64,000 bases of DNA from Minutocellus sp. GHC0000111 (Eukaryota). Location of the stretch: positions 2,356,001-2,420,000 of the forward strand of contig OZ361257.1 of NCBI GenBank assembly GCA_977018835.1, in the 5' to 3' direction. Position 1 is the stretch's first letter. Every line of letters starts with the position of its first letter. Positions 8,284-51,393 of this stretch are shown here, piece after piece. The position numbers and the translations under genes were made by a program. The notes below the pieces were generated by a model. That model was not told where the DNA came from, made no database searches, and was given only the letters and a program-made list of their open reading frames with translations.

Positions 8284-8387
8284 ACACGTGTAAAATATTT
8301 TATCACTGTAAATAAAAATGGATTTATTGTGTGCTGTTACTCACGTGCTACGCACATTCTTGTTATCTACATGTGTTGAGGTAATGA

Positions 8388-12217: not shown

Positions 12218-12516
12218 TTACAGCAAAAGCCCTTTATTCACATCCTCCAAATTTCGTAGCAACGCTTCCTGTCTCTTCAGCCGTTTGTCCAATGCGGCCT
12301 TGGTGTGTTCCACAACTTCATTTGGCGCCTTCTCTAGGAAGTCGGATGTTTCTAGTTTGCAAGAGAGGATGTTGATACTCTTTCGGTTTCTTTCCATCTG
12401 CTTCTCGATCAAGTCCCGCCTTTCCTTGAGCTTCTGTGTCTTCGACTTGGGAGTGGTGGAAGAAGAACGTCGGACCTTGTTCGACTTCTCTTCGAATCCC
12501 TTGACATTGATCAACG
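12218..12516 (-). pseudogene. 3' fragment of rtcB (coiled-coil tail only), truncated at a rearrangement junction
   Basis: Reverse complement of 18533..18831 (LINVKGFEEK...NKGLLL). Confidence 0.85.
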
Positions 12517-14185: not shown

Positions 14186-14219
14186 ATATATTTATTTCCT
14201 CCAATCCACCACCACCAAG

Positions 14220-16680: not shown

Positions 16681-17196
16681 GTTGCTTCGTTGATGCTTTA
16701 ATGCTTGATTTTTTTCTATGTTGGCGTCGTGCGAGGCTCGGACGAGGCTGTGCATGTGGACTGTGTACATGCGCTGGTCCATAAGAGGTACTAGCTAGTA
16801 TGTTAGTTCTCGTTGCGCCGTCGGTGGCTCTGCCTGCGGTCTGCTCTGCGTCTGCGTATCTTTTGACAGTCGAGTGAGTCCAGAAAGATACGAGGGTGTT
16901 CAGGACAGCAATCAGTGAACCAAGCAGGAATTAGCTGCTTGCTGGTTTGAATGGTTGATGAAAGGCATTCATATCGCATGATTCATTGCTGTGCCTCTCG
17001 TTGGTGCTAAATATTAGCGCAGTAGAGCCTGTACTGGCTAGAGCTTAGGTGGCGGAGGCGATCTTTTCTTGACACGCCTCCACGGAGAGGATGGTAACCA
17101 GATATCTGATCTCCCCAGTGACAACATGTGACCGAGGCGATGAATGCACTTCCACGATTTTGCACTTCACTTCTCCAACAACAACTAATTAGGAAT

Positions 17197-18831
17197 ATGA
17201 AGTTGTCGAATGCTCGTGCATCAATCCTGCCGGCCTTGCTAACCATCGCTGTCGGCACTACAGGCGCTGATGCCTTTGTCCTCTCTCGCGAAACGCCAAG
17301 GCACTTCAGTTCGCAGATTCGCAGCAGCAGCGCGGGAGGAGACGAAGATTCGCCTACTAGCGAGTTTCCAAGGATTATAGAGACAAAGGGCGTGCCAATC
17401 TATTTGTACACGGATGACATTGAGTTCGAAGCCATCGAGCAGCTCAGGGTGCTTGCCGAGAGTCCCGTCCCAGTTGATTACGTATCGGCAATGCCAGGTG
17501 CTCATCTCGGAAAAGGAGTTACCATAGGCTCGGTATTTGCTTCAGAGAAGTACGTATGTCCGAATGCCGTGGGCGTGGATATTGGATGCGGAATGGCGGC
17601 TGTGCCCATCGATGGGCTGTACAAGAACCAACTGACAAACGATCAAATGAACGAGATCCAACGGCTCATCAAGGAACAAATCCCAACTGGATTTGAGCAG
17701 CATCGCAAGACGCTGGAGGGGACCCGCGAGGTGTTGACGCAGATCACCGATGAGGTGGAACCAACTCAGTACCTCAAGGACCAACTTTTGGAGCCTCGTG
17801 TCGCCGATCAGCTGGGCACCCTTGGAGGTGGCAATCACTTTCTCGAGGTGGTGTACGAGGAAGGTACCGAGCAGGTTTGGATCATGTTGCATTCAGGAAG
17901 TCGCAACATTGGCAATCGTGTCGCAACGCGGTACGACCAGGTGGCCAAAAGTTTGCTTTTGAGTCAGGGCGTGGACACCCAACCTCTTCGAGGTATTCAC
18001 TACATGCCTATCGACTCGCAAGAGGGACAGAATTATCTACGCGACATGGAGTGGTGTCAGCGCTACGCCTTTCATAATCGCCAGGCGATGCAAAATATCA
18101 TTGAGACGATTGTGGAAAGGGTCACCGGCAAACAGGCCAACGTTGCGAAAGGGACCAACATCCATCACAACTATTGTGCCTGCGAAGATTGCGGTGATGG
18201 CAGGCGACTGTGGATAACCCGCAAGGGCGCGACGTCCGCAAAGGCAGGAGAGTACGGTATTATTCCCGGATCGATGGGTACTGGCAGCTACATCACCCGG
18301 GGCCGAGGAAATCTCTTGAGCTGGAATTCATCATCCCACGGTGCAGGCCGGAGAATGTCGCGAACGAAGGCAAAGGCAGAGATCGCTCAGAGTGATTTTG
18401 AAAACGTCATGAAAGGGATTGTTTGCGACACCACGCCGGCCGTCAAAGACGAAGCTCCGCAAGCATACAAGGATCTCAATGTCGTTATGAAGAATCAAGA
18501 GTCTCTCACTGATGTCGTTCACCACCTTCTCCCGTTGATCAATGTCAAGGGATTCGAAGAGAAGTCGAACAAGGTCCGACGTTCTTCTTCCACCACTCCC
18601 AAGTCGAAGACACAGAAGCTCAAGGAAAGGCGGGACTTGATCGAGAAGCAGATGGAAAGAAACCGAAAGAGTATCAACATCCTCTCTTGCAAACTAGAAA
18701 CATCCGACTTCCTAGAGAAGGCGCCAAATGAAGTTGTGGAACACACCAAGGCCGCATTGGACAAACGGCTGAAGAGACAGGAAGCGTTGCTACGAAATTT
18801 GGAGGATGTGAATAAAGGGCTTTTGCTGTAA
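17197..18831 (+). CDS. rtcB: Bacterial-type RNA ligase RtcB, plastid-targeted, with C-terminal ValRS-like coiled-coil arm
   Basis: VGVDIGCGM, GTLGGGNHF, HSGSR, HHNY, PGSMG, SHGAGR, DEAPQAYK; signal peptide ending ADA-F; tail KLETSDFLEKAPNEVVE. Confidence 0.92.
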   Translation: MKLSNARASILPALLTIAVGTTGADAFVLSRETPRHFSSQIRSSSAGGDEDSPTSEFPRIIETKGVPIYLYTDDIEFEAIEQLRVLAESPVPVDYVSAMPGAHLGKGVTIGSVFASEKYVCPNAVGVDIGCGMAAVPIDGLYKNQLTNDQMNEIQRLIKEQIPTGFEQHRKTLEGTREVLTQITDEVEPTQYLKDQLLEPRVADQLGTLGGGNHFLEVVYEEGTEQVWIMLHSGSRNIGNRVATRYDQVAKSLLLSQGVDTQPLRGIHYMPIDSQEGQNYLRDMEWCQRYAFHNRQAMQNIIETIVERVTGKQANVAKGTNIHHNYCACEDCGDGRRLWITRKGATSAKAGEYGIIPGSMGTGSYITRGRGNLLSWNSSSHGAGRRMSRTKAKAEIAQSDFENVMKGIVCDTTPAVKDEAPQAYKDLNVVMKNQESLTDVVHHLLPLINVKGFEEKSNKVRRSSSTTPKSKTQKLKERRDLIEKQMERNRKSINILSCKLETSDFLEKAPNEVVEHTKAALDKRLKRQEALLRNLEDVNKGLLL

Positions 18832-19236
18832 TTTGATCAAATTGTAAAAGGATCGCATTAGCGCTTACTAATCTATAGTAGATCTACGTATGCATGACAA
18901 TTTTCTACAAAGACGTTTCTATCAGATTGACATGAGGCGATGGGAAGTGAAGAAAGTAGATCAAGCAAAGAAAGCCGGAAGTATTTACTCATAACGCCGC
19001 TTGCGTATTTGTTGACCCAGCTAGCGGTTAAATAGCTCGGTCTACCCGAAGCGCATAGGACTGGTACCGGTAGAGCTTTACAAACAACTAAGCGCATTGA
19101 TTCCTGCCTGTTCGCCGATCGATGGAGCTACCAAAAGGGGAAAAAAGGAAGAAAGGAAGAAAAAGGTGAAGATCTTTCAATCTCAGATCTTCTGCATGGC
19201 AAAATGAGATACCTGCCGCCCCACCAGCAACCAACC

Positions 19237-20782
19237 ATGCATCTTGGTATTAGGTCGGTCTGCCTTCTCTATTTATCGTCGCCGTCGGCTGCATTCCTCG
19301 TACCTGCGGCCACTTCCGCCAGCAACGGCAAAGCCTGCTGGCGGTCTGACCAGCACAGTGATGGAAAGATTCGCTTCTCGATCTTGACGGCACTTGCTCC
19401 TCAGAACGAGAAGCAGGGCGGTCAGGCTAATATCGAAGGAGAAGAAGCAAGTTCAGATGGGATTGCTGAATCAGGTGTCTTTCTCCATGGCTTTGAGGCC
19501 GATCTGGACCAGAAGATGGATGATCTGAAGGCTCAGTATGAGGAGTACAAAGAGTTTTCGGGCTCGTCGGCGGGAGGAATCGATAACAAGGTGAAGAGCA
19601 AAGTAGACGACGGAAGCAAGGACGACGAAACAGAAACCCCCGCCATAACGAGTACTGATCCAAATGCTAGAGGAAGCTATGGGTATGTGACCACTGGCGA
19701 TCGTCAGTTGACCGCAGCACAGCTGGAAGTTTTGTTTTTGGTTCCGCGAGAGCTGTGTGCTTTTGCATTATTTTTCCTCGAAATCTCTCCATCCTCATCT
19801 CAAGAGATCCATATCATTCTGTTTTTGCTGTTTCTTTGGTTTGCCAGGGATGAAGAATATCCTGCTCCGTACTACACTCCTCCGCCCAATTTCTTCGCTC
19901 TTGCGACAAATCAATTTGTTCGCAATCTCGATTCCATGTTGGGAAGGAACAAGGCAACGACAAGCAAGGGCGACGAGACAGTAGATCTCAGAGCCAAGTT
20001 GAACTCGCTGAAACTTCCATCTTGGGATCTTGAAAGCATCGCTCGGTGTGATAAAAGAGCCTCTCGTTCTTCGATCACCTTACCACTTGCTTTGTCCTCT
20101 CATCGACCTTGTCTATAAGCAGCCTGACGATAAGTTGAACTCGGGAAGCGCCATTCAACGCCTATGCATAATGGAGAAGATTGGTCGGGCACCATATCTC
20201 TCCTTTCTTTCTATGTTGAATCTTTATGAATCATTTGGCCTTTGGCGCCCTTCTGAAGATTTGAGGGTGGCCCATGCCCACCAGGAGCTATCCAAATTCA
20301 GAAGACAGAGGATGATCGAACAACTCGGTGGAGGTCAGACCTGGACGGCTAGATTCATTGCAGAACATGCTGCATTGTTTGCCCATCTCACAATCGTTCA
20401 CCTGTGGTTTCTTTCGCCAAGCCTTGCCTATCGTTTTGCCCAAATGATTGAAAGCCACGCCTTTCACACGTATGATGCCTTCCTTGAGCAAAATGAAAGT
20501 GCGCTCAAGTCGATGCCACTTTCATCCATTTCTGATGCCGACACCAGCACGCCCTATTCGAATCTTTTTGAGATGTTCTCTAATTTCAAAGACGACAATT
20601 CCATTCACTCTATGAGGCTGGCAGAGGCTTACTATCCATCGGTGGTGTTAAATGCCGCAGATAGCGAAAAGAAACTATTTCTTGGTCTCTTTGTGACTCT
20701 CATGGTCCTAAATTTCCTGCCCTCTAGCCTCGGGGATGGCACTTTCGCCGCTCTTTTTGATAAGATGCCTGGTTGGCCCTGA
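19237..20782 (+). pseudogene. Plastid-targeted PTOX/alternative-oxidase-like protein; intron 19683..19847; frameshift near 20045; degenerate diiron ligands
   Basis: Presequence SAA-FLVP; EKIGRAPYLSFLSMLNLYESFGLWR, SPSLAYRFAQMIESHAFHTY; gtatgt..ccag intron joins GSYG/DEEY. Confidence 0.7.
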
Positions 20783-21431
20783 GCTCCCCATCTTTCTTTG
20801 TACCGTTTCACTGGTGCACCGCCTTTCTAGTTACAGCTAGTATGGAAGTTTTCATTTGAATTGCCATGTTCTAATGTATTGTTAGTATTGTATTAACGCC
20901 CGGCACGTGGGAGTCGGAGAAAGTTATCTGTAAAATAATCATTATTGCATATAATGTCGAAGGCAACCAATTATTTCCAAATATTCGCTTATGGAAGTGC
21001 TAGCTAAATATTGCCAGGTGCTTGATTGGTTGTGCACACTTGGCCCCTCAATGAAGCCCATTAGGAATGTTCGTCTACAATGTTTGCGATGATGCGCCAC
21101 CGCCGGCACCCACGTGTTCGTGGATAGTAGCAGCGTCTAGAAATAAATAGTCAAGGCATTTTACTAACAGCTACTGCTCGAAGAATTCCGCTAGCTAAAT
21201 ACGTATCCTAAGATGGAACTATGCTAGTGATGCTGAGTTCATTGTTATTTGTTGAGTTATACGCCTGGCCTCTTTGTTAAAGTCGACGATCTTCGTCATT
21301 TGTGTTAAGAGGGCGCTGTCCATAATTTTCCCCGTTTTAATCCCCCTTATTCTTATTTCTTATGACGAGCGAAGCATGACAAAAACTCGACCCCACCATG
21401 AGAATCGCCGCTCTGCCCCCTCTTCATTACG

Positions 21432-22661
21432 ATGAAGCGCAGCGCTGATAATAGTGCCGGCCCGGCCCACAACGCAGATACGCGGTTGCGGAAACTCAAG
21501 ACAGATAACTCCGGTCGCCCGATTTTGCCTGTTGACAAGAAGAAAGAGAAGGCGGAGGACAAAGCGAAAGACGCCGTTACCGAGATACTGGAGGGCCTCG
21601 CCGTCACGTTGGAGAACGACCCGAACGGACAAGGACGAGAATTATGGAACAATCCCGGCGTCGGCCATGCACTTCAACATCTTGTCAAAGCAGTCGAGGC
21701 TCGCGCTGATAAGTATCATGTTCGGGATGATATTGATGTCGCTGCTGAGCGGCCCGGCCTCGTAGTTACCAACCTGTCCGTGGCTGATGTGAAGTTGAGG
21801 CTGACGGTCGGCATCGTCGATCAATTGCAAGATCCCATGTTTGACGCCGGACCTGAATTCTTCCCTATATTTCAACTTCATGGGAAACGGATCGATATTG
21901 GATCGGCTCTTGCTGCGCACGGCCGACCTTTCAACACCACATCGCTTACTTTGCTTGATGGAAGCGGAAAGCTTATCGTCGCTCGTGTTGCCCTGACAAT
22001 TACCGAAAAGGCCCGAAGTCTACAACAGGGCCATGTGATCAAATTGACAAAGTTCCACCGATGGCATGTGGCTCCATATGATGACATACACTCTACTGCT
22101 GGGATTGGACTAGTTGATTTTGATATTGTTGGAATGGGCCAACTTCTGCAGGTAGATGGTGGGCCATCAGCAGCGATCAGATCGGACACGGATGCTCTTG
22201 TTGCGGCCGTTTGTGAGGAAGCCGACGATGATCCGACGGCAGCGCCGGAGGCAGACACATTCGGTAATTGGGACGAGACCAGAGAGAGGCCGCCAATACC
22301 CCCTGCTTGCTGCACTGCCGCCAACCGAAGCTGCTCAATGTACGGCACACTCTTCTTTCAGAAATGCGTCTGCGAAGAAATGCTGGTGCCGACGGAGGAG
22401 GACCTGGAGGATATCGCTGACAAATACTACGCAACCACCATGCCAGTCGAAGCCATGGCAAATAATTTGAAGAGGAACATGCTGTATTGGTACTATGCAA
22501 CTGAGGTGTATCATGTGAGAGGTTGGCTTGATCGGAAGCCCTTGCCAACCTGTCTAGTCTTTTGCATTAGGTTCATTTATCCAAATGATAAAGGTGAACG
22601 ATATGTTGGATTCATCCCTGGTCATCAAGATGAAGAGGAAGAAGAAGAGGAAAATGCATAA
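21432..22661 (+). CDS. KolX-like protein, copy 2
   Basis: Same 409-aa translation as 8388..9617. Confidence 0.75.
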   Translation: MKRSADNSAGPAHNADTRLRKLKTDNSGRPILPVDKKKEKAEDKAKDAVTEILEGLAVTLENDPNGQGRELWNNPGVGHALQHLVKAVEARADKYHVRDDIDVAAERPGLVVTNLSVADVKLRLTVGIVDQLQDPMFDAGPEFFPIFQLHGKRIDIGSALAAHGRPFNTTSLTLLDGSGKLIVARVALTITEKARSLQQGHVIKLTKFHRWHVAPYDDIHSTAGIGLVDFDIVGMGQLLQVDGGPSAAIRSDTDALVAAVCEEADDDPTAAPEADTFGNWDETRERPPIPPACCTAANRSCSMYGTLFFQKCVCEEMLVPTEEDLEDIADKYYATTMPVEAMANNLKRNMLYWYYATEVYHVRGWLDRKPLPTCLVFCIRFIYPNDKGERYVGFIPGHQDEEEEEEENA

Positions 22662-22765
22662 TCATTACCTCAACACATGTAGATAACAAGAATGTGCGTA
22701 GCACGTGAGTAACAGCACACAATAAATCCATTTTTATTTACAGTGATAAAATATTTTACACGTGT

Positions 22766-25292
22766 TTACAAGCTGCCATTTTCTCTCAGTATCGCCGGCA
22801 TCCAAGAGCTAACATCATTTGCCGATACACCGAAGTTTGTCTTAGCTTTCTTATTATTTCTTGCAGATTTCTTGTTGCTGCCTGGGCTTCTGCGCTTCTT
22901 TCCGGCGTAAACGACAACGTCGTCAGCATCGTCGCATTGACATTCAGCCCGAGTGTGGCCAAGCTGCTTGCATTTCTGACACTGCTGGTCAATCTTCTTC
23001 TTGCGGCCAGGCTTTGCTGGTTTCGCCTTACCAGCAGCTAGGGCCCTGTTCTTCTTGTACACATAGTCCTTGTCGTCTTTCTCGCTTCTGTTTCGCAAGG
23101 CTGCTCGAAGGCGCTTGCTGTCGCTCTTGCTCTTTTTGTACTCATCGGTGCGCTTACGCGCAAGGTCGCCCTCGAGCTTCCGGTCAATTGCATCGAATCC
23201 ATCTTTTCGGGTAGGAGAATCCCTCGATCCCAACTTTCCAAGAACTCGCTCATTGAATTCCGTACCCAGTGACTTGTGGCCAGCGGCTCTACTTGTTGCA
23301 TTTGGGTAGGCGTCTGAAGCAGTCAAATTCGGCCTTTTCCCCATCGTGAACTTCGTCACCATCCCGTTGAGCTGTTCGACGCCGGTGGTAGATTCCTTCT
23401 TGCAGTTGGAGTCGGCAGTATTCTTGTTGATTCTCTTGGTTATTTCAAGCGTCATCTTGCGAATCGTGTCGTCACTAATCTCCAATATGTCGCCATCGAA
23501 TTGATTCCCCGAGCTCCATTCCTCATCGAGCTTGCCATCACTCCAATCAGGATGAGCAATGCTGAGGCGAATCCAATCACACGTGTTGGTGGTGCAAAAA
23601 GTGTGAATGCCACATTGGTGACGAACGACGGACTGGAGTTCTTTCTGAAGGAGGGCCAGATGACTTTGTTTTTCCTCCTCGGACACAGCACCATCGGGCT
23701 GATCGAGAACGCTGTGCTTGTACCGATCAGTAATCTTCGAAATGTCCTGTTTCATCCGATTGATGCGTGGTCGGGGGATGGCATTAAAATTTTCAACTCC
23801 TTTGCAAACTTTTCGAAAGCCTGAGTCAATTGAATTGCTCAGATGATTAAAGTCACGGCAAAGCTCAACACCAGAAGCCAACTCATCACCTACTATGTCT
23901 TCCTGAGCGGCTGCTGCCCTAGTAATGCCTTTGCTATCGCCATCGGCAACGTGCTTCTCAACGAAAAGAGGACACGCCTGCACGCTTCCTTCATCGTCGA
24001 CCAGAAGATTCCGTCCAACATTCTCGGCCAGATGCTCCTCTGCCACACCGGGGGAGTAGGAAGAGTTGCGATAGCAGAAGCCATCATGGTCGTACAGGGC
24101 CAGTATCTCATCCTTGCTCATGTTTTTGAGCTCACTCGGCGTTATTGGATTGCCGGCTTCCCGCCTCTCCCTCAATCTTGCATTGCAGGCTCTCACGCAA
24201 CAGTGGCAGCTTGCCTGAGAGATTCCCTTGTCAACAACAAGGCCAGTTTCCTTGTCTACGGCAAACACCGCTGCAGCAGAGCCAGTGTAGCAATGGCCGT
24301 AGTCGCGTTTGAGGGCGCTGCCGTCTTGGGCCACCGCAACCACCGCCGCCGTGTGCATCTCGCCGCCTTGTTCAAACTCAACAGTCTTGCTGCTAGCGGC
24401 ACATGCTTTTGCCCTGTTCTCGTCAATGATTTCATCAGCTGCTTCAATAGCCGCTGCTCTGCATTTCTTTTCCACCTGTCGGGCATTCTTTTCGGTCGGA
24501 TGGACGATGTCGGCCTTCGTGCAGAAATTCATGAAGCGACTTGCGTGCATGGCCTCATCTTCCGCTGCCTCCATCAGCTCCAAGTTCATTCCAGCCTGAC
24601 TTCTAGAATGCTTTCTGCCGGGGCACACAACTTCTGACCTCTGGCCGATCCAAGTGCAAAAAGAAAAAGGTTGGTTGCATCTGTCGCATCGCCATTCAAA
24701 TGTAACGCCGAATCCACGCCGAACTGGCTCGGCCGAGAGACACAGATTGCCGCACGATCGGTGGAGACTCTGCACGAAGTCACACAGCTGCTTCATCTCA
24801 ACCACAATTCTTTTGCCGTTGAGCTGCACGCCGGTGATGTTGGGACGATCGGTAGCGTTGGCGGTGGGAGTAGATGACCGACCGCCCGAAGAATTCTTGT
24901 CGGAATAATATTTCAGTGTCGCGTTGAGATGGGGCCCATGCTTTTCATCGTCCTGGAAGTAATTTCAGGTGTGGTCGGCAGTGATAGCTTGCCATTGCGT
25001 TGAGAGCGTGGGCTGGCGTTGTCGGCTGTTCTGGAGAAGCGGTAGAAGGGCTTTGCAACGTCAAGGCCTGATATTTTCTCTGGACGTCGTCGTTGGACAT
25101 TGACCTCGTGTCGTGTTGGGACGTGTGAAGAGATGATCGAACAAGAGAGATCTCTAAGCTCGGCGACACGCCACCGCGCACCAAGATACGGACAAGCTCA
25201 TCAATAGTGTAGTAAGTACATCTGACGTCGTCTGGGAATGAGAGCAAGAGTGAGAGGATTGCCTCCTTGGCGTTAGCACGTGATGTTTCCAT
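22766..25292 (-). pseudogene. Kolobok transposase, copy 2, with two 1-bp deletions near the 5' end
   Basis: Mirror of 5755..8283; single-base deletions at ~25126 and ~24963 (possibly read errors). Confidence 0.75.
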
Positions 25293-27336
25293 GGTTGTTT
25301 TTTGCTTTGTGTCGGCTCTGGCGCAAGATGCGCTTTTCGATGAGAACCTTACAAAAAGAACCCCAAATGAGGGAGACGTTCGGCGTGGATTCGGCGTTAC
25401 ATTTGAATGGCGATGCGATAGATGCAACCAACCATTTTCTTTTTGCACTTGGATCGGCCAGAGGTCAGAAGTTGTGTGCCCCGGCAGAAAGCATTCTAGA
25501 AGTCAGGCTGGAATGAACTTGGAGCTGATGGAGGCAGCGGAAGATGAGGCCATGCACGCAAGTCGCTTCATGAATTTCTGCACGAAGGCCGACATCGTCC
25601 ATCCGACCGAAAAGAATGCCCGACAGGTGGAAAAGAAATGCAGAGCAGCGGCTATTGAAGCAGCTGATGAAATCATTGACGAGAATAGGGCAAGAGCACA
25701 TGCAGCTAGCAGCAAGACTGTTGAGTTTGAACAAGGCGGCGAGATGCACACGGCGGCGGTGGTTGCGGTGGCCCAAGACGGCAGCGCCCTCAAACGCGAC
25801 TACGGCCATTGCTACACTGGCTCTGCTGCAGCGGTGTTTGCCGTAGACAAGGAAACTGGCCTTGTTGTTGACAAGGGAATCTCTCAGGCAAGCTGCCACT
25901 GTTGCGTGAGAGCCTGCAATGCAAGATTGAGGGAGAGGCGGGAAGCCGGCAATCCAATAACGCCGAGTGAGCTCAAAAACATGAGCAAGGATGAGATACT
26001 GGCCCTGTACGACCATGATGGCTTCTGCTATCGCAACTCTTCCTACTCCCCCGGTGTGGCAGAGGAGCATCTGGCCGAGAATGTTGGACGGAATCTTCTG
26101 GTCGACGATGAAGGAAGCGTGCAGGCGTGTCCTCTTTTCGTTGAGAAGCACGTTGCCGATGGCGATAGCAAAGGCATTACTAGGGCAGCAGCCGCTCAGG
26201 AAGACATAGTAGGTGATGAGTTGGCTTCTGGTGTTGAGCTTTGCCGTGACTTTAATCATCTGAGCAATTCAATTGACTCAGGCTTTCGAAAAGTATGCAA
26301 AGGAGTTGAAAATTTTAATGCCATCCCCCGACCACGCATCAATCGGATGAAACAGGACATTTCGAAGATTACTGATCGGTACAAGCACAGCGTTCTCGAT
26401 CAGCCCGATGGTGCTGTGTCCGAGGAGGAAAAACAAAGTCATCTGGCCCTCCTTCAGAAAGAACTCCAGTCCGTCGTTCGTCACCAATGTGGCATTCACA
26501 CTTTTTGCACCACCAACACGTGTGATTGGATTCGCCTCAGCATTGCTCATCCTGATTGGAGTGATGGCAAGCTCGATGAGGAATGGAGCTCGGGGAATCA
26601 ATTCGATGGCGACATATTGGAGATTAGTGACGACACGATTCGCAAGATGACGCTTGAAATAACCAAGAGAATCAACAAGAATACTGCCGACTCCAACTGC
26701 AAGAAGGAATCTACCACCGGCGTCGAACAGCTCAACGGGATGGTGACGAAGTTCACGATGGGGAAAAGGCCGAATTTGACTGCTTCAGACGCCTACCCAA
26801 ATGCAACAAGTAGAGCCGCTGGCCACAAGTCACTGGGTACGGAATTCAATGAGCGAGTTCTTGGAAAGTTGGGATCGAGGGATTCTCCTACCCGAAAAGA
26901 TGGATTCGATGCAATTGACCGGAAGCTCGAGGGCGACCTTGCGCGTAAGCGCACCGATGAGTACAAAAAGAGCAAGAGCGACAGCAAGCGCCTTCGAGCA
27001 GCCTTGCGAAACAGAAGCGAGAAAGACGACAAGGACTATGTGTACAAGAAGAACAGGGCCCTAGCTGCTGGTAAGGCGAAACCAGCAAAGCCTGGCCGCA
27101 AGAAGAAGATTGACCAGCAGTGTCAGAAATGCAAGCAGCTTGGCCACACTCGGGCTGAATGTCAATGCGACGATGCTGACGACGTTGTCGTTTACGCCGG
27201 AAAGAAGCGCAGAAGCCCAGGCAGCAACAAGAAATCTGCAAGAAATAATAAGAAAGCTAAGACAAACTTCGGTGTATCGGCAAATGATGTTAGCTCTTGG
27301 ATGCCGGCGATACTGAGAGAAAATGGCAGCTTGTAA
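25291..27336 (+). CDS. Chimeric N-truncated Kolobok transposase created by the fold-back junction
   Basis: Antisense-derived MVVFCF...EGDV fused in frame to RRGFGVTFEW...; full DDE core and CCHC retained; expression unknown. Confidence 0.5.
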   Translation: MVVFCFVSALAQDALFDENLTKRTPNEGDVRRGFGVTFEWRCDRCNQPFSFCTWIGQRSEVVCPGRKHSRSQAGMNLELMEAAEDEAMHASRFMNFCTKADIVHPTEKNARQVEKKCRAAAIEAADEIIDENRARAHAASSKTVEFEQGGEMHTAAVVAVAQDGSALKRDYGHCYTGSAAAVFAVDKETGLVVDKGISQASCHCCVRACNARLRERREAGNPITPSELKNMSKDEILALYDHDGFCYRNSSYSPGVAEEHLAENVGRNLLVDDEGSVQACPLFVEKHVADGDSKGITRAAAAQEDIVGDELASGVELCRDFNHLSNSIDSGFRKVCKGVENFNAIPRPRINRMKQDISKITDRYKHSVLDQPDGAVSEEEKQSHLALLQKELQSVVRHQCGIHTFCTTNTCDWIRLSIAHPDWSDGKLDEEWSSGNQFDGDILEISDDTIRKMTLEITKRINKNTADSNCKKESTTGVEQLNGMVTKFTMGKRPNLTASDAYPNATSRAAGHKSLGTEFNERVLGKLGSRDSPTRKDGFDAIDRKLEGDLARKRTDEYKKSKSDSKRLRAALRNRSEKDDKDYVYKKNRALAAGKAKPAKPGRKKKIDQQCQKCKQLGHTRAECQCDDADDVVVYAGKKRRSPGSNKKSARNNKKAKTNFGVSANDVSSWMPAILRENGSL

Positions 27337-27440
27337 ACACGTGTAAAATATTTTATCACTGTAAATAAAAATGGATTTATTGTGTGCTGTTACTCACGTG
27401 CTACGCACATTCTTGTTATCTACATGTGTTGAGGTAATGA

Positions 27441-28670
27441 TTATGCATTTTCCTCTTCTTCTTCCTCTTCATCTTGATGACCAGGGATGAATCCAACATA
27501 TCGTTCACCTTTATCATTTGGATAAATGAACCTAATGCAAAAGACTAGACAGGTTGGCAAGGGCTTCCGATCAAGCCAACCTCTCACATGATACACCTCA
27601 GTTGCATAGTACCAATACAGCATGTTCCTCTTCAAATTATTTGCCATGGCTTCGACTGGCATGGTGGTTGCGTAGTATTTGTCAGCGATATCCTCCAGGT
27701 CCTCCTCCGTCGGCACCAGCATTTCTTCGCAGACGCATTTCTGAAAGAAGAGTGTGCCGTACATTGAGCAGCTTCGGTTGGCGGCAGTGCAGCAAGCAGG
27801 GGGTATTGGCGGCCTCTCTCTGGTCTCGTCCCAATTACCGAATGTGTCTGCCTCCGGCGCTGCCGTCGGATCATCGTCGGCTTCCTCACAAACGGCCGCA
27901 ACAAGAGCATCCGTGTCCGATCTGATCGCTGCTGATGGCCCACCATCTACCTGCAGAAGTTGGCCCATTCCAACAATATCAAAATCAACTAGTCCAATCC
28001 CAGCAGTAGAGTGTATGTCATCATATGGAGCCACATGCCATCGGTGGAACTTTGTCAATTTGATCACATGGCCCTGTTGTAGACTTCGGGCCTTTTCGGT
28101 AATTGTCAGGGCAACACGAGCGACGATAAGCTTTCCGCTTCCATCAAGCAAAGTAAGCGATGTGGTGTTGAAAGGTCGGCCGTGCGCAGCAAGAGCCGAT
28201 CCAATATCGATCCGTTTCCCATGAAGTTGAAATATAGGGAAGAATTCAGGTCCGGCGTCAAACATGGGATCTTGCAATTGATCGACGATGCCGACCGTCA
28301 GCCTCAACTTCACATCAGCCACGGACAGGTTGGTAACTACGAGGCCGGGCCGCCCAGCAGCGACATCAATATCATCCCGAACATGATACTTATCAGCGCG
28401 AGCCTCGACTGCTTTGACAAGATGTTGAAGTGCATGGCCGACGCCGGGATTGTTCCATAATTCTCGTCCTTGTCCGTTCGGGTCGTTCTCCAACGTGACG
28501 GCGAGGCCCTCCAGTATCTCGGTAACGGCGTCTTTCGCTTTGTCCTCCGCCTTCTCTTTCTTCTTGTCAACAGGCAAAATCGGGCGACCGGAGTTATCTG
28601 TCTTGAGTTTCCGCAACCGCGTATCTGCGTTGTGGGCCGGGCCGGCACTATTATCAGCGCTGCGCTTCAT
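27441..28670 (-). CDS. KolX-like protein, copy 3
   Basis: 409 aa; one E->G change (AAGRP) versus the other copies. Confidence 0.75.
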   Translation of the reverse strand: MKRSADNSAGPAHNADTRLRKLKTDNSGRPILPVDKKKEKAEDKAKDAVTEILEGLAVTLENDPNGQGRELWNNPGVGHALQHLVKAVEARADKYHVRDDIDVAAGRPGLVVTNLSVADVKLRLTVGIVDQLQDPMFDAGPEFFPIFQLHGKRIDIGSALAAHGRPFNTTSLTLLDGSGKLIVARVALTITEKARSLQQGHVIKLTKFHRWHVAPYDDIHSTAGIGLVDFDIVGMGQLLQVDGGPSAAIRSDTDALVAAVCEEADDDPTAAPEADTFGNWDETRERPPIPPACCTAANRSCSMYGTLFFQKCVCEEMLVPTEEDLEDIADKYYATTMPVEAMANNLKRNMLYWYYATEVYHVRGWLDRKPLPTCLVFCIRFIYPNDKGERYVGFIPGHQDEEEEEEENA

Positions 28671-28811
28671 CGTAGTGAAGAGGGGGCAGAGCGGCGATTC
28701 TCATGGTGGGGTCGAGTTTTTGTCATGCTTCGCTCGTCATAAGAAATAAGAATAAGGGGGATTAAAAACGGGGAAAATTATGGACAGCGCCCTCTTAACT
28801 CATTCCAAGGC

Positions 28812-42864: not shown

Positions 42865-42942
42865 GGTTGAGGGGCGTTTGTGCTGATATGCCGATCGAGG
42901 CCGGCGGCGAACGATAGCTTCAACAGTCAAAAATTTGGCCAT

Positions 42943-43176
42943 TGTGGGTACCGCACGGTGGGGATGAGCTGGCGACGGTGGTTAGCAGCAGGCACTAAAA
43001 CTGCATTCCTGTTAGGGCCCAGTTTTTCTGCTGACCACCACCTTCGCCTCCTCTCGTCTCAACTGACCAAGCCACAACCATCTGCGATTGCTGCCGTTGC
43101 AATTGCTAAGTCAGCTTACAGTACCGGCTCCCAGAGCCTGTCTCTCTCTCTCTCTCTCAGTAGTTAGTTAGTTTTA
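42943..43176 (+). repeat. Split direct repeat A1
   Basis: Near-identical to 50975..51210. Confidence 0.9.
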
Positions 43177-43357
43177 GCATTAGGTTGGTGCTACTCTACG
43201 AGTTCGTAATTTTTGGCCGACACACCACCACTGCTGACTGCTCTGCTGTTAGTCCAGAGAGAGACCGCAGTCGACTCCGGAGTCAAACGGCCACGGCTCA
43301 GCTCCGTTGATAGTGCACGTAGATCCGATACCAGTCTCTACGACGGCAGAACAGTGC

Positions 43358-44761
43358 ATGGCCGAACCAGATCGACCGGAACTGGATCACGTGTTGTTCG
43401 GAGTGGCAAGAGACCTCATCGTCCGAGAGGAGACTGACTCTCCTGACCTTCCACGAGGCTGGGACAGAGACTCAGACGTCAGATTCGGCCCGGGCGCAGA
43501 AGTTTCTTCACAGCCAGGGCGTCGTCCGAGAGACTGACCACAGACGCACTGGATTGGTGGAAAAGTTTTGCCGAGGGCAGAATCGACGTTACCGAGTGCC
43601 TCACCGATCTCGTCGAGCGCGCCACAGGCCACCTCCCATCGAGAGCCACGGGGTGCCAGCCATCCCCCCAGCAGCAGCCGTTTCACACCTTACTCCAGTA
43701 GCGCACGGTCTGGTCACCGAGCACCTCGAGCAACAAGCCTTCTTGGTGTCACCGGACTGGCCCACGTGCCTCGTCAACGTCTGGCTGACATGGCCACGCG
43801 CCTTGCCGAGCCTGAGATCCGCCGGGCACACGAGACGGCAACTAACTGAGTTGGACCTGAGCAGTGCACTGTGCACCGACTACCACGGGCAGACGGAGGC
43901 GTCGTGGTTCAACAGCATCGGGGGCGAAGGTGTCCGGAGGCATCGGCAGCAGCAGCGCGGCAACACCATTGCATCTGGCCCCAGCTCTGCCGGCTCACGC
44001 AGTGCATCCTCCACTGCCAGGCCGACCGAAAAGAAAGACGGCGCATCGCGGCCAGAGAGGGCAGACCTCTAGAGCCGACACCGCACGCTTGCATAGGTTC
44101 ACGGGGGAGCGAGCTTCCACCAACGCTGCCGCTCACTTATTTCGAGTGGGAGGCAAGGCCACTCTTCTACCCACGTGACGCACACGACCGAACCGAGCGG
44201 GCTGGCGTCAGTGTGGCATTGGAGCGAGGAGATCTCATCGGCCCTTTCGCCCCGATCATCACCCAGTTCCCGCTGGATTCGCCGCACCCGTTCCAGAGAC
44301 GGCAGCACCTACGACCGGACCAACTCACTGAAGCTGTTATCAACTAACTGTGGGACAGTGGATTCGAGAGCCTCACCAGCGCTCGACTCCGACACACTCG
44401 GCCTGACAGCAATCCTCTTGGACACCGAGTGGAGGTCAACCCGCACGAATGCTGGGGAAGGCTGGCATGCCTAACGGCGTCCCCCTCACACCGCTGGGCA
44501 GGCACCTACCATCGAGTCTGTCCGAGGTGGCTAGACGACACGGCCGATCCAAATCGCTGGGAGGGCACCCACTGCCGCGTCTGGCCAAGAGCATCAATTC
44601 ACCGGCGCCCCGACGATCTCGAGGCACCTGTCCGCCTGCGAGACATCACCGCCGATGTTTTGGTGTCAGAGCCACCGCGTCAGGCATTCAACATCCTTCT
44701 ATCCGCCTTTGGAGAGCCCGACATCGCCGACCGCATCCTCTCACCCTCACGGCCGATCTGA
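43358..44761 (+). pseudogene. Degraded extra ORF at the 5' end of the YR element, unknown function
   Basis: Chain of same-strand protein-like ORF pieces 43307..43537, 43554..44072, 43871..44347, 44429..44761. Confidence 0.4.
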
Positions 44762-44827
44762 ACCACATCCAGCGCCGAGAGGACCGACGCCGAAGGCGAC
44801 AGGCAAGGTGATCGAGCATTGATCACC

Positions 44828-46883
44828 ATGGCTTCATCTTTCAACACCTGGAAGTCAGTCCTACTGGCACAAGAGACACCGGCCGGGGCCGACGCCGCCG
44901 TAGCTCGAGATTTCCAGAGATTCCTCGCCGACAACGTCTGTGAAACCGACCCCACGGCCGCTGTGGTCCAGAGCCATGCCCGAGCGATCCAGCAGCAAAT
45001 CCGCGACGCCGAGGGTTTGTCCATGCTGGCCCACCATCCAGAAGGGAAAGTCGTGGTGATTCACCATGCCGTGGCTCAGGGAGGCACCACCATGCAGCCC
45101 GACCTCAGGTTGGGTGGGCTCCTCGGGATCGACGATGTAGCCCCGGCAATGTCGTTGGCCCAACCTAGCCTCTTGCGGTGCAAGGTGGTCCTAGCCCCAT
45201 CGGTGGAAGCCATGCTGGGGGCACCGTCAGAAGCCGCCCTAAAACCAGTCTCACCCAGGAAGGCTCCAACACCCGCCACCGGAGTGCCTCCACGAAGTTT
45301 AAGTCCCTTGTGCTGCTGCCACCTTCGACTCTGCAGAATGTTCTGGAAGAGCACGAGGCATCGCCTTGGGCCATCCTGTCCGCCATCAAACGTCGGCTGG
45401 ATGAGGACGCCGGCAGCGACGACGCATCAGACAGCGGTGACGACGAGGGTCATGGCGCAGCAGGTCTTCGCTCCAATGAGGCTGTTCAACACGTCGTCAA
45501 GTGGCTGTGGTTCGTCGCCACGTCCGAGCAAGGTGACATCCCGGCCGTCAGCTTGCACCCAACGACGGACCCGGCTCTCAAGACATGCGCCCGTGAGATG
45601 CACGCTCGGAACATCACTGGCGCCAGTGGCGACGGACCACCAGCCGGTGGCGCCCCGACCGACTCTGCAGTTGCTGCCGCGGCCAACGCCATGACTAGGG
45701 CCGCGTCCGAAGCATCCTCCCTCACCGGCGCAGTCATGGCCTACACTGACAAGGTCGACAAGAAGCACTCGATGAATGGCGCCATCCTCAAGGCCTGTGC
45801 CGCTTTCTGCCGGGTCTCGACCGAGCATGACGATGACGTAGCAGCGATCGACTCGAATCTTCCCGAAGGATTGAAGCACTGCTGGAAGAGTCAAACCTCA
45901 CGCAAGCAGCCGTCGGCCTCGAGCTGCATGTAAAGGGCAAGACCGGAGTCAGGACATCTCTCCAGGGCCTCACTTACGTCCGCCTCTTTGGCTTCGGGAA
46001 GAGCGACAAGAAAATCTACGATGGCTTCTCTGTCTTCGCCTTTAGCCCGGCAAACTCCAGCAGCAGCAATGCGCCCCTGCACCTCGCCGCCTCTCAAAAG
46101 AAAGGATGTGCCTCGACTCAGGTGAAGGCTCTTCTGAAGCAGAACTACCGGTCCCCAACCGAGTGCGACGGTGCCAAACGTCACATCTCGGCCTTCGGCG
46201 CTGGCATTTCCTTCCTTGCCGGAGAGGACTCCGAGCCCGCTCGCTGCGTCACCAGGGTCCTCAGTCACATGAAGACACACGAGGACCAGTGCCGCGACAT
46301 CGCCGAGAGCCATGGCGAGAAGTTCTGGCTGGCGATGTTCCACAATGTCGACGCCTCCATCCATGCATTCTGGAAAGCTTGTCTCCGTTCCCCCGACGAC
46401 GCCGGCAACGACCTCTCTTGCTTCTCAATGGCCGACGAGTCCAAAAAGACAATGAAGACTCAGAATCCTTTCGTCTACCCCAGCCACATCAAGCTCGTCC
46501 AATCGGCCGACGCTCCCACCCCTTCCTCGGACTCCGACTCCGACAAATCATCAGAGCCAAGAACCAGTCCGAAAAAGAAGCAAAAGACGGGCGGCGCCAG
46601 CGGCAGAGCCCACCAGCACGAACACTTCGTCACGTTCGATGTCAACCCCGGCAACTTTGCAAAACGGCTTGGCAAGAAATCCGAGCCCTGTGAGGACAGA
46701 CCTGAAATTAATGGCTGTAAATTCTGCCCTCCATTCATCCTGATAGGTGTCTGCGGCGCCGGATCGTGCAAGCTCAAGAAGTCGCGCATGTCAAGAGGCC
46801 TCTTAAGGCAGGCATCGGAGAGAGGACCCGTCGAGCAGCACGTCGAGAAATGCGATCGGAAGCACGAGGAGGCGGAGGAATGA
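44828..46883 (+). pseudogene. Gag-like ORF1 of the YR element, frameshifted; degenerate C-terminal CCCH finger
   Basis: Fragments 44819.., 45178.., 46122..46883; FCPPFILIGVCGAGSC..KSR. Confidence 0.55.
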
Positions 46884-47396
46884 CGGATCGGGTGGGCACG
46901 GAGGCGTGGCCCACCCTCGGAGGATGCTGGAGAAACATCTCGGCCAGCCGGCCGAGCTCGTCCCTCCAAGCGCCGTCGAGTGCAGCCAGACACGTCGGCG
47001 TCGATCCGCCCCGGTGGCTCCAGCCGCCCAAGGTTGTCCGGCACCCCAAAATCCGGCGTGTGCGGTCGCAACGACATCAGCAACCAATCCAGGCTCTCCG
47101 GTGCCCCTAACACCGGAGCAGAAGGCCGAGGCGTTAGCAGTGACCTTCGGTCGGGTCCTGGTCCCCCTAACACCAGCGGTGATGCCTGCGCCGACAACAG
47201 CATCTCAGGCTCTGGCTCCAGCACCACTGACGCTGGCGGTGCGGAAGCCACCGACAACCTCTTCGACCGGCTAGGCCAGCGAGAGAAGGATCTCCTAGGC
47301 AAGCAGCCCCAACCCGAAGCACAGTCTCCCCCTGGTTCCCCTACGCACAGCAAGGAAGCAGAACCGACACGCCAAAATGGTGAGTGAGACCAACAG

Positions 47397-49697
47397 GTGA
47401 AGAAACACCTACAACAAACGGGGCAGCCCAGCGCCCACAGTGGGCCCACCACGGTCGGACAGACCCGCATGCTCGTGAACGTGCAGCATGCACATGTCTC
47501 ACCTTTTTCTCGCCTCATGCATTTCCACGTGGGAACTAGAGCCCATCTTCGATGTTTCCACCTTGGTGCTGCTCGTCGGGCCCCGTCGGCCACACCGAAG
47601 CCCACGGAGTTCAGATTTGAGCTCTTGACGGAGGCCGCCGCTCACAATTGGTCGGTCCTCAAGAAATGCGATCGTTCTCTGAGCAGGGCACTCGAGGCGC
47701 AGGGCGGGTCGCCACTCCAACCGGGATCGGAGTTCAGAGACCTGAGTCTTCTGGAGCCGATTCTTGGCCGGCACCCGCTGTGGCCCCGCTTCCGCTCCAT
47801 TCTCGACAGTGGATCCGACTGGGCCCTCGATCCGGTGAGCGACGAAAGCAGACTGGACAGCGTGACAAAGAACATCGGCCGAGGCAACCACAAATCGGCC
47901 AGGGATAGGCCGGAGGTGCTCAAGGACCAAGTTCTCGACGACGTGACCCGCGGTTTCGCCCTCCCTCTGCCAGCAAAGGTCGCGCCCCTCACTCCTGGAG
48001 CGGAGGTGGCTCCGATGGGTTTGGCAGCACAGAACACGATCAGCGAGGCTGGCGAGATCATGCCCAAGGACCGCCTGACTCACGACCAATCCTTCGAGAT
48101 CGGTGCCGCACGGTCCGTCAACAACAGAGTGCGCATGGAGGACCACCAGCCAGTGGTGTTCGGCCATGCCCTCCGGCGAGTGATCCACTGCATCGCAGAC
48201 GCCCGTCACAAGCATCCCCGTGCTCCCATCCTCCTGCAGAAGGTCGATTTCAAGGCTGCGTGTCGCCGGGCCCACTTGGCTCCCAGCACGGCCGTCAAAA
48301 CGATCACCACCCTGGATGGCATTGCCCTCATGTCCCTCCGGCTGACTTTCGGCGGCCGCCCTTGCCCGAGCGAATGGTGCAACATGTCCGAATCGGCGGC
48401 CGACCTGGCCAGGGCCCTCCTGCAGTGCTCGGACTGGGACCCGTCAGAGCTCCACAGCCCCCAGCAGAAGCACTTGGGTCGCCCCAAGGTGGAGGGCGAC
48501 GATGTGCCGTTCGCGCCGGCCCTGGACATGATCATCGTAACCCTTCCCGACAACAAGGATGGCATCGTCGAGCCGCACATCGATGACCTCATCGCCGCAG
48601 CCCCTGATCTGGGCGACAACAAGGATCGGACATCCGCTGCCACCCTCCTCGCCATCCACGCGCTTGGCCGACCGGCATCCGACAGCGAGCCACTGCCCAG
48701 AGATGACCTTGCCTCCATCAAGAAGCTGCTCGCCGAGGGGACGCCTTCCGAAGCACTGTGTCTCTTGGGGTGGGATGCTGACACCCGGCGGCTCCTGCTG
48801 AGGCTCCCTTGGAGCAAGCACCTGGCCTGGCGCGATGACATGCTTCGGCTCCTCAGAGCCCGCGGCGCCACCAGATCAGAGCTGGACACCTTGGTCGGAA
48901 GGCTAAACCACGTCGGATGCATCATTCCAGCCGCACGACACTTCCTCAGCCGCCTTCGGGATCGGCTCTGGAAGGCCCGCCGCCACGGCCGCCAACGGTT
49001 CGACTCTGAGGATGCAGAAGACCTCAACCTGTGGCTCCGCTTCCTCCGAAGGGCCGCCGATGGCATGAGCATGAACCTCCTCACGCACCGTTGCCCCACC
49101 CACGAGCACATGAGTGACGCCTGCGAGCACGGCATCGGCGGATGGTCCTCATCCGGCAGAGCGTGGAGATTTGCCCTCCCCGAGGAGCCATGGGGCCGGT
49201 TCACCCTCAATTACCTGGAACTCCTCGCCGCCGTCATCGGCCCATGGATCGACCACATCGAGGGCAACCTGCCAACCCTCTCCTGCGTGCTGTCGGGGAC
49301 CGACAGCACCACGGCCGAGGGATGGCTCAGGAAGTCGAACTTCGTGTCTCACGGCGAGAAGGATGCCGACGTAGCGGTCAAGCTGGCCACGGCGCGGCGG
49401 AAACTAGCCGACATGCTCATCGAGAGACCAACACCATGCTGTGCTCACAGTGGTTCCAGGGGAAGCGCAATCCGGAGGCCGATTCTCTTTCTTGTGATGC
49501 CGATCTCTCTGATGCTGACCTCACGAAATTGCTTCTGTCATCTCCCGAATGTCAGCTTCCCTCAAATTTCAGGATTGCACCACTGCCCAACGAGATCACT
49601 TCCTGGATTGTCTCGCAGGCGCGGACGCTGCCCGTCAGGAAGCAGTTACAACGGCCACTGCCGAGAAGCACGCTCTCGCGTGGAGCCGCTGGACTGA
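47397..49697 (+). pseudogene. Reverse transcriptase / RNase H of the YR element (YIDD mutated to HIDD)
   Basis: KDRLTHDQS, KVDFKAACRR, RLTFGGRPCP, PHIDD, LGW, SDACEHGIGG, NYLELLA, TDSTTA. Confidence 0.88.
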
Positions 49698-50778
49698 GTT
49701 CCTGCAGCTCATCGGGACCGGGGACGACGTCTTCCTCGACAAGGTGTCACCCCGAGACCGAACAGTCATTCTCGGCGCCTTTGCCCACCACGCCGTCCGA
49801 CAGGCCAGCTTTTCGGGGCCAAAGTTTTCGCGACTGGCTGCGTCGACAGTCCGAGATGCCGTCTCACATGCATGCTCGTCCTTCCGGCACAACCAGCGCA
49901 GGGACCCAGGGAAAGACGACATCGGCCAGCCTTCATTCCTTCTACAGCGGCAGTTCCGAGGACACAGCCAGTCCGACCCGGCCGAGCGGCCGGAGAGAAG
50001 GCGATCACCTGCCGGCTCCTCAGAGAGATCGCCTCCGTCAGGGAAACGGAAGAGGACAGTGCAGTCGGGCAACTAGGCAGGACCAAGCTGCTCCGCCTCC
50101 GCAACATCCAGTTCTACCGCGGCCGACGGCGCATGTGTCACAACGACCGGTCCCTCCTCTCAGCAGACTCTGTCTCCGTCACCTTCGAGTTCCAGAAGAA
50201 CGACGAGCGTGACGTCACGATTACGCAACACTGCACCCACGACGCCACCCTCTGCCCAGTTCGAGCTTGGGCTGCCCTGGTGAAACGAGTCCTAGGGCAC
50301 CCTAGTGCCAACAGCGACACGCCGGTAAATGCCTTCGTGGTCAACGGCGTATTAAAATACATTCCTGCCACCCGAATGGTTGACAAGATCCGAGCGTCGG
50401 CCACAGTGATGATTGGAGAGAGGACGTCCTGGGCTGCCGCCATGTCCCTCTGAATTCGGATCACACTCCATTCGCAGCGGAGCAGCAATGGCAATGTATC
50501 TAAATGATGTTCCCACGTACACAATCATGCTGGTAGGGCAGTGGTCCAGTGACGCCTTCCTCAAGCACATCCGTCGCCAGGTCCAAGAATTTACATCCGG
50601 AGTCTCCACACGCATGATCCAACGAGGTTCCTTCTTCAACGTGCCCCACGCACACTCGACGAGCCATCGCGAAGACCCAAGGACCCCAAATTGCCGCCAA
50701 TCCTTCGCCGGCATCAACAGCATTGGCCGAAATGCCGGCTTCGGGACTCCAATGCCCCCCTTCGCCCTGTTCACCTAA
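49549..50778 (+). pseudogene. Tyrosine recombinase of the YR element (frameshifted; catalytic Tyr mutated to His)
   Basis: FEFQKND, LCPVRAWA, GSHSIRSGAAMAM, IMLVGQWSSDAFLKHIRRQV. Confidence 0.88.
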
Positions 50779-50837
50779 GCACGACACACATTATTGGCCG
50801 ATCTGTGCTGCTACGGAAAGGAGGAGGGGGAGAGGGA

Positions 50838-51393
50838 CCTCACCCTCTAAGAAGTTTCATTTACCGCCAATGCCAGCTCCAGTTCACGTAGTTAAACTGC
50901 ATTTCATGTTCTACTAAGTTGCATAGAGTTGGGAGAATCAGCGGAGGGAGGTGCTGTGTTCGATGTATCATCGTTGTGGGCACCGCACGGTGGGGGGATG
51001 AGCTGGCGACGGTGGTTAGCAGCAGGCACTAAAACACTGCATTCCTGTAGTGCCCAGTTTTTCTGCTGACCACCACCTTCGCCTCCTCTCGTCTCAACTG
51101 ACCAAGCCACAACCATCTGCGATTGCTGCCGTTGCAATTGCTAAGTCAGCTTACAGTACCGGCTCCCAGAGCCTGTCTCTCTCTCTCCCTCAGTAGCAGT
51201 TAGTTAGTTTATTTTAAATTCCCTCAAACCCGTCTAAGAAGTTTCATTTACCGCCTCCTCACCCTCTAAGAAGTTTCATTTACCGCCAATGCCAGCTCCA
51301 GTTCACGTAGTTAAACTGCATTTCATGTTCTACTAAGTTGCATAGAGTTGGGAGAATCAGCGGAGGGAGGTGCTGTGTTCGATGTGTCATCGT
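50838..51393 (+). repeat. 3' terminal B1-A2-B2 repeat block of the YR element
   Basis: B1 50838..50974 matches B2 51257..51393; A2 matches A1; extra 23-bp partial B at 51233..51255. Confidence 0.9.

Follow-up and report, generated by a model that had tools for sequence, protein, structure and literature searches.

Introduction

The closest described counterpart of the process considered here is the TpA hypermutation of integrated viral DNA in the rhizarian Bigelowiella natans, for which a 2026 preprint (Mettrop et al., 10.64898/2026.01.13.699255) gives, over two integrated viral regions, a per-site rate of ~6e-7 mutations each generation, with A>G or T>C accounting for 230 of 231, all at TpA; for this process its authors propose an ADAT2 homologue as the candidate enzyme (what is said here of cited work refers to the available portions of each text). 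The reverse change, C>T, typically CpA>TpA, is made by ascomycete repeat-induced point mutation (RIP; PMC2621366). Among enzymes acting on adenine, the engineered TadA editors ABE3.1 and ABE8e-YA favor YAC within a hierarchy of YAY > YAR (Y, pyrimidine; R, purine; PMC12528748). Here we describe a copy of an Ngaro-type tyrosine-recombinase retrotransposon in the diatom Minutocellus sp. GHC0000111, from which TpA has almost certainly been removed by A:T>G:C hypermutation. The copy occupies 42942..51392 (+ strand, 8,451 bp) of a 64,000-nucleotide stretch of contig OZ361257.1 (positions 2,356,001 to 2,420,000), which is hereafter called the window and numbered from its first letter.

An initial annotation of this window had assigned the signature to 47397..50778, which lies inside the affected element but covers only its 3' 40%. 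It had also named no characterized pathway of this kind in diatoms; the process as such is not an undescribed one, the same dinucleotide signature having already been measured in B. natans.

Results

TpA loss in the retrotransposon

As had been counted by eye in the initial annotation, exactly two TA dinucleotides (at 47906 and 48538) occurred in 47581-48900, and 25 in 47397-50778. The observed/expected ratio (o/e) of TpA was 0.09 over 47604-49400 within the reverse transcriptase (RT), and in 1-kb bins it was 0.06 in 48001-49000, as compared with 0.28-0.93 outside 46001-50000. The RT-RNase H frame (47388..49694, +; GC 0.63) extends over 769 amino acids from stop to stop and contains 2 Tyr, 37 His, and 19 Cys; counted from the GTG at 47397 to 49694, it comprises the 766 codons of the near Tyr-free frame reported earlier. 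GC content was insufficient to account for this composition, as the RPL5 frame of the window (14123-15109), with the same GC of 0.63, retained 12 Tyr in 329 codons and a TpA o/e of 0.69. A metagenome scan yielded 39 loci of related elements, and the window showed the lowest TpA o/e of the 40 sequences compared (39 loci and the window). Four intact relatives with a GC of 0.58-0.62 had TpA o/e values of 0.44-0.46 and kept their Tyr residues. Since the GC-matched intact relatives retain both TpA and Tyr, neither GC content nor the native make-up of the family explains the depletion. The CpG o/e in the element was 0.90.

The tetranucleotide RTAY had an o/e of 0.0 in 44001-50000, while bins outside the element gave 0.56-1.28, except for two bins of a Mutator-like DNA transposon (0.26 and 0.32), and the host DNA flanking the element on both sides was normal. 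Within this one window, the change was confined to foreign DNA and host DNA was spared.

Loss of conserved tyrosines

For comparison among copies, we used a sister-copy set of 54 proteins, ~89-97% identical and nearly all encoded on long contigs, from which 5 near-duplicates were dropped to leave 49. The YIDD column of the RT was Tyr in 77, Phe in 26, Ser in 1, and His in none of 104 distant homologues; the window reads HIDD (CAC, 48576..48578), and 38 sister copies showed His in 30, Cys in 7, and Tyr in 1. Similarly, the Tyr column of DFKxAYRR, which was Tyr in 87, Phe in 16, and Cys in 1 of the 104 homologues, is Cys in the window (AACRR; TGT, 48261..48263) and was Cys in 31 and His in 4 sister copies. 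In the tyrosine recombinase, AFLKH (CAC, 50566) occupies the position of the catalytic Tyr found in 116 of 120 recombinase matches. These three motifs had been proposed as lost tyrosines, and the homologues agreed. The fourth proposal, HVGY to HVGC (TGC, 48918), held among the closest intact relatives (Tyr in four of five) but not among the distant ones (12 of 104). The intact family recombinases P0435 and P0436 keep the catalytic Tyr, and six columns that are His in the window are Tyr in P0435. Besides Tyr codons, those for Ile, Val, and Leu were changed as well.

Direction and independence of the changes

The variable columns of the sister copies were of the types His/Cys/Tyr, Thr/Met/Ile, Ala/Val, Pro/Leu, and Thr/Ala or Ser/Gly after T, which are exactly those arising from TAY, ATA, GTA, CTA, and TA at codon boundaries. 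Among variant states present in at least three copies, 36 of 40 fitted TA>CA/TG, as compared with 21% of the possible non-synonymous transitions. At nine RT His/Cys columns in the 49 copies, the third state was Tyr (25 cells) and never Arg, and no copy covering at least four of these columns kept two Tyr. The occurrence of His and Cys but never Arg, together with Tyr in the intact members, sets the direction as TA to CA or TG, and not as CpG decay. When all 54 rows and the window were included, 9 of 236 site pairs were linked at p<0.05, where ~12 were expected; the sites being unlinked, each copy carries its own mosaic. At the DNA level, in the 40 of 116 rows of differences listed, 35 of 37 letters inside the element were transitions (18 places), 24 of which were TA/CA/TG exchanges, and 8 of the other 11 had G or C in the window and A or T in the majority path of the assemblies.

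Members of 12 other family clusters (P0069 among those checked) displayed no Tyr>His/Cys mosaic, and 8 close pairs of metagenome loci displayed no excess of transitions after a 5' T, both weak negatives because these are mostly short-read assemblies, which collapse copies. DNA relatives of the sister copies were found in none of 27 JGI metagenome candidates with a family protein and in none of 348 in an IMG/VR scan. Two general explanations were ruled out: GC-biased gene conversion, as non-TpA A>G was only 1.8 times G>A, and selection for low TpA, as catalytic residues were lost. TpA loss equal to that of the element in sequences of matched GC, a substitution spectrum without TpA enrichment, and relatives natively carrying HIDD, which the initial annotation had named beforehand as speaking against it, were all absent from this window and its sister copies. 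We are left in little doubt that the TpA-specific A:T>G:C hypermutation of the element copies is a real phenomenon.

Both strands and the substrate

In agreement with the annotated A:T>G:C change on both strands, 12 separable sites carried CA in 169 and TG in 138 cells, TA being kept in 46 (CA vs TG, p 0.09 against equality). A palindromic site, CGGA-xx-TCCG (48627..48636, with the dinucleotide at 48631), served as a control of strand symmetry and gave TG 18, CA 19, and TA 1. As the sites are unlinked and both strands are altered, the copies were likely mutated independently, as DNA.

The terminal repeats of the window copy diverged by such changes. Repeat A1 (42942..43174, +; 95% to A2) has TA at 42949 where A2 (50974..51210, +) has CA, and A2 further differs by an AC duplication; repeat B1 (50838..50973, +; 98.6% to B2) has TA at 50967 where B2 (51257..51392, +), its partner in self-comparison, has TG. 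Two copies of the Mutator-like DNA transposon differed at 3 TA/CA/TG sites among 11 substituted places, and in a 1.7-kb inverted duplication of the window 6 of 7 transitions fell at TA/CA/TG. Small as these numbers are, they point to chromosomal DNA after insertion, and not RNA or complementary DNA (cDNA), as the probable substrate.

An extended target, RTAY

In the saturated interior of the element (43442..49941, 6.5 kb), RTAY occurred 0 times (~45 expected), mixed sites 30 times (~75), and YTAR 21 times (~17), the expectations being taken from the four GC-matched intact relatives. In the sister copies, RTAY was kept in 3 of 246 cells (99% converted) and mixed sites in 36 of 87, and at three clear mixed sites the T-A-Y strand, with its 3' pyrimidine, was changed 40 times vs 11 for the other. 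These data showed a preference for R-T-A-Y, with the ranking RT[A]Y > YT[A]Y > RT[A]R >> YT[A]R. ADAR prefers a 3' G. The one-strand bias and 3' G expected of ADAR or RT-linked editing were not observed, the changes being strand-balanced and the 3' pyrimidine favored.

Each TA had undergone ~2 changes (13% kept), vs 0.8% other amino-acid differences per residue, and other transitions amounted to 2.6-4.7 per 1,000. The excess at TA over background is thereby estimated at a few hundred-fold, a lower bound at saturated sites. Among rare variants, A>G was seen in 62 of 13,164 chances and G>A in 44 of 17,270, with transversions at ~0.5 per 1,000 and neither A>C (6/13,305) nor A>T (5/11,892) raised. 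Rare A>G depended on the 5' neighbor (A 10.2, C 7.4, and G 1.1 per 1,000) and was absent before a 3' A (0/2,262). Several of the recurrent changes outside TA fell in GA-A-Y, and with this weak GA-A-Y and C-A context the restriction to TpA was not absolute; other adenines were converted at ~0.5%, vs 99% for RTAY.

Conversion was less complete at the ends of the element. In the recombinase tail, 10 of 24 cells at three RTAY Tyr codons had survived (by a visual reading that omits one frameshifted row), and TA persists in the majority path at three RTAY sites within 43768-44084.

Short tandem duplications

In the window copy (43428-51034), all 12 indels listed, 41 further rows being unlisted, were extra letters forming tandem duplications of 1-4 nt; most were of 2-4 nt, many turning one unit into two, and they were not homopolymer slips. 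Apart from the two of the window itself, one-codon insertions in the sister copies numbered 14 among 17,698 residues of the RT and 5 among 3,349 residues of the recombinase, the majority repeating a neighbor; deletions comprised 1 of one codon and 5 of three codons. In eleven other clusters, 84,828 residues contained no one-codon insertion, although these sequences are for the most part live and collapsed and so do not make an equivalent control. Since two single-base indels were the sole indel differences between the Mutator-like copies in 6.8 kb, assembly error is argued against as the source. Scars left by repair, or slippage of a polymerase, in connection with the same hypermutation process might explain the duplications.

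Identity and insertion of the element

Ngaro elements (order DIRS) have the layout A1-[ORFs]-B1A2B2 and, in Cafeteria burkhardae, carry ORF1, RT/RNase H, and tyrosine recombinase in this order (PMC8547959). The window element, delimited by its split direct repeats in self-comparison and by the joint of an empty site, matched this definition in both respects but was longer (8.5 kb vs about 6 kb), had an RT of a clade that escapes Pfam RVT_1, and was dead, being additionally broken by frameshifts. Its ORF1 region (44762..46880, +; TpA o/e 0.24) is spread over three frames and would be Gag-like by position alone, the frame having no match in a Pfam search. Pfam, including RVT_1, was blind to the RT in the window, in the intact relatives, and in 34 aligned members, and a PDB sequence search with the RT returned 0 matches; the RT was recognized by fold search alone, in which the predicted model of the intact relative P0007 (pLDDT 82) matched the Moloney murine leukemia virus (MMLV), foamy-virus, cauliflower mosaic virus (CaMV), and Ty3 RTs, with a best E of 3.6e-9 among the retroviral, CaMV, and Ty3 matches. 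The RNase H assignment comes from the source name of two members of a related cluster, with Pfam silent. The recombinase gene (49549..50778, +) is frameshifted, shows an HSIR motif (H-x-x-R), and belongs to a set in which PF00589 was recognized on 2 of 120 matches. The RT-RNase H clade formed by the window frame and its relatives P0007-P0120 comprises 351 matches, which are overlooked by Pfam and PDB sequence searches even if intact, and its elements are probably under-annotated in algal genomes.

Contigs in runs X1 and X6 join 42941 directly to 51393 at flank depth (81 and 125), and run X12 has loose contig ends at 42942, 50973, and 51392. The flank of the empty site differs from the window at 3 of ~208 bases, all transversions. 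With an empty site and so nearly identical a flank, the insertion would therefore be polymorphic between close strains, precise excision being the alternative. No target-site duplication accompanies the insertion at 42941/51393, as expected for integration by a recombinase. Element contigs reached depths of ~2,700 in X1 and ~4,200 in X6, vs flanks of 81 and 125, which corresponds to roughly 33 copies or more; contig depths are not allele frequencies, as the assemblies appear to keep one majority path, and were used for this rough copy number only. Contigs from RNA runs also cover the element, but contigs cannot show transcription.

Other features of the window and of related loci

The Mutator-like element (6.85 kb) is present at 5668-12516, 18533-25379, and 25378-28802, one copy being partial, with 99.6-99.9% identity. 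Among its frames are one resembling alternative oxidase (PF01786, 10270-11037) and two that Pfam does not match; RTAY is reduced in its transposase (o/e about 0.3), and erosion is apparently under way. The 1.7-kb inverted duplication (98.5%; 3299-4980 and 12516-14187), whose short, internally repeated ends recur at 13428-13527 and 3926-4054, may consist of nested miniature inverted-repeat transposable elements (MITEs) or may represent the long terminal inverted repeats that a foldback-like element would have. The RtcB tRNA-splicing ligase (17122-18828, +) ends in a coiled coil resembling Val_tRNA-synt_C (PF10458) at its C terminus, a feature that the two closest alone among the 120 matches listed have in common with it. 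The best named relatives of this one gene are from Entomoneis, Amphora, Cyclotella, and Thalassiosira (63-70% identity), pointing to a diatom as the likely host.

In another family of the same clade, from a different host, locus L017 (1025-2536) had a TpA o/e of 0.24 and Cys or His at three of the seven Tyr of its 67%-identical relative, the RT motif included. Ten further loci (L023, L024, L025, L027, L030, L031, L034, L036, L037, and L038) combined a CpG o/e of 0.03-0.21 with stop codons; judged from their sequences, the clade appears to be eroded by CpG decay in these other hosts.

Discussion

The process most resembles that of B. natans, in which both strands of foreign DNA are likewise changed at TpA, from A to G and from T to C, opposite to the usual AT bias; the enrichment of TpA-poor B. 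natans genes for RT and transposase domains is a further likeness to the window retrotransposon. The settings differ: in the rhizarian, de novo mutations were recorded in single-copy regions of nucleocytoplasmic large DNA virus (NCLDV) or virophage origin that are still TpA-rich, whereas here a multicopy retrotransposon of a diatom is saturated. The B. natans process also goes on during vegetative growth, being active in some of the lines but not in others. In addition, the available preprint text gives no flanking context, edge effect, or linked duplications, all three of which were seen here, and places all mutations at TpA, unlike the weak non-TpA A>G of the window element. That text never mentions diatoms or stramenopiles, and our literature searches, whose coverage mostly excluded subscription journals, found no diatom report of the signature. 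The signature is thus known from one preprint, and the RTAY rule and the linked duplications are new here. As in ascomycete RIP, the transitions are dense, tied to a dinucleotide, and present on both strands, and transposon copies are inactivated by them independently of one another; the change is the reverse, however, as TpA is lost and not gained through C:G>T:A. RIP depends on repeats and the sexual cycle. In the initial annotation the process was pictured as repeat-directed and as disabling elements by destroying Tyr codons; both would be hypothetical features, the B. natans target being single-copy, the window copy being broken by frameshifts too, and Ile, Val, and Leu codons being changed along with those for Tyr.

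We consider that a host process likely acts after insertion, and that its agent is likely an adenine deaminase of the TadA/ADAT type attracted to foreign DNA that has been silenced, and put the probability of this reading as a whole at roughly 55%. Recruited to silent chromatin, a putative TadA/ADAT-like enzyme would deaminate A to inosine at TpA on either strand of the DNA, and the inosine would be read as G at the next replication. A single change to TG or CA would destroy the site on both strands, so that the process would run to saturation and thereby remove Tyr (TAY) and Ile (ATA) codons, including those of the RT YIDD motif and the recombinase nucleophile; repair of inosine may leave the short tandem duplications. 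The pure A>G spectrum, the strong T at -1, and the pyrimidine at +1 support a deaminase, resembling TadA-derived editors in their A>G specificity and 5' and 3' pyrimidine preference. The known members of the TadA/ADAT2 family are engineered or tRNA enzymes; here, by comparison, T greatly surpasses C at -1, and a purine at -2 improves the target.

Several points weigh against this reading. The evidence from the copies is mostly at the protein level, and the contigs may include two haplotypes; before near-duplicates were dropped (54 rows), the variance of distances was slightly above that of shuffles (7/300). The young Mutator-like copies are only weakly affected (TpA o/e 0.38-0.57), and a single slippage event may account for 3 of 6 changes in the 1.7-kb duplication, which share a CA/TA tract. 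As for the enzyme, which is putative, we give deamination by a TadA/ADAT-like protein even odds; the analogy is to engineered editors, and TadA-type enzymes require single-stranded DNA. A pure deaminase alone leaves the tandem duplications unexplained, and the purine before T falls outside the published YAY hierarchy (PMC12528748).

The main rival to deamination is error-prone repair at WA motifs (W, A or T), in which a translesion polymerase like Pol eta would rewrite patches of silenced, probably methylated, transposon DNA, inserting G for A and slipping into duplications. Pol eta mutates WA hotspots, and TA is such a hotspot on both strands (PMC7884765). In keeping with this, A was the second-best 5' neighbor, changes recurred in GA-A-Y, every listed indel of the window copy was a tandem duplication, and the sister copies showed an insertion excess. 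TA was, however, changed about once or more per adenine and AA at ~0.01, a gap of at least hundred-fold, and A>C and A>T were not raised. The ranking of TA over AA by Pol eta is modest, far less steep than the gap in the element. As compared with the hotspots of somatic hypermutation, which likewise include TA on both strands and AA as the second context, the specificity is thus far sharper, and we regard this rival as unlikely.

Less probable still is that N6-methyladenine (6mA) or another modification of adenine at TpA in transposons precedes deamination or miscoding of the modified base. A palindromic four-base RTAY would be the type of target recognized by a DNA methyltransferase, and symmetry on double-stranded DNA would follow; eukaryotic AMT1, in the source available, instead acts on ApT and marks transcribed genes, TAC was altered as well as TAT, and A after G was spared. 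Exclusion of mismatch repair from transposon heterochromatin, by which replication errors (A:T>G:C and slippage) would accumulate, would fit the indel excess in the window and sister copies. Repair loss can yield short duplications together with an A:T>G:C bias. We nevertheless consider it very improbable, as G>A stays at 2.6 per 1,000 while 99% of RTAY is gone, and the listed indels are mostly 2-4-nt duplications and not homopolymer slips. Equally hard to sustain are changes made during retrotransposition, through RNA editing of the transcript combined with editing or RT errors on single-stranded cDNA: DIRS-order elements do pass via single-stranded linear cDNA (PMC7192593), and each copy has its own mosaic, but two separate steps would need equal strand rates (18:19), the terminal repeat pairs within one copy differ by such changes, as do the copies of a DNA transposon, and the B. 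natans process, in the text available, acts in chromosomal DNA of clonal lines. Ancestral CpG decay behind the CA/TG flips, or a family natively without TpA and Tyr, can be practically dismissed: since CA and TG can arise from CG too, CG>TG/CA formally fits 31 of the 40 variant states that are common (null 39%), and about ten related metagenome loci do show CpG decay, but the third state is Tyr and not Arg, the intact members carry Tyr, the GC-matched intact relatives keep TpA at an o/e of 0.44-0.46, and the CpG depletion expected of decay is absent from the element.

Returning to the putative deaminase, a bolder form of the proposal, which we advance tentatively, would make it part of a dedicated adenine-mutating defence of diatoms, one that mirrors RIP and that rhizarians also have, in which an R-T-A-Y enzyme saturates silenced foreign DNA within the divergence time of conspecific strains and the duplications are repair scars. 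If true, this would be a natural eukaryotic DNA adenine editor, of interest to base-editor developers, and since diatoms have genetic tools, the enzyme and its targeting signal become testable. The contrast of RTAY with YTAR offers a simple genome-wide index and lets a prediction be made for the B. natans data. For diatom transposons, consensus sequences and estimates of age become misleading, because majority calls give His or Cys at catalytic Tyr. If true, the finding would extend a once-reported process to a second lineage of the SAR supergroup, and from integrated viruses to transposons, and would suggest a widespread A-to-G counterpart of RIP.

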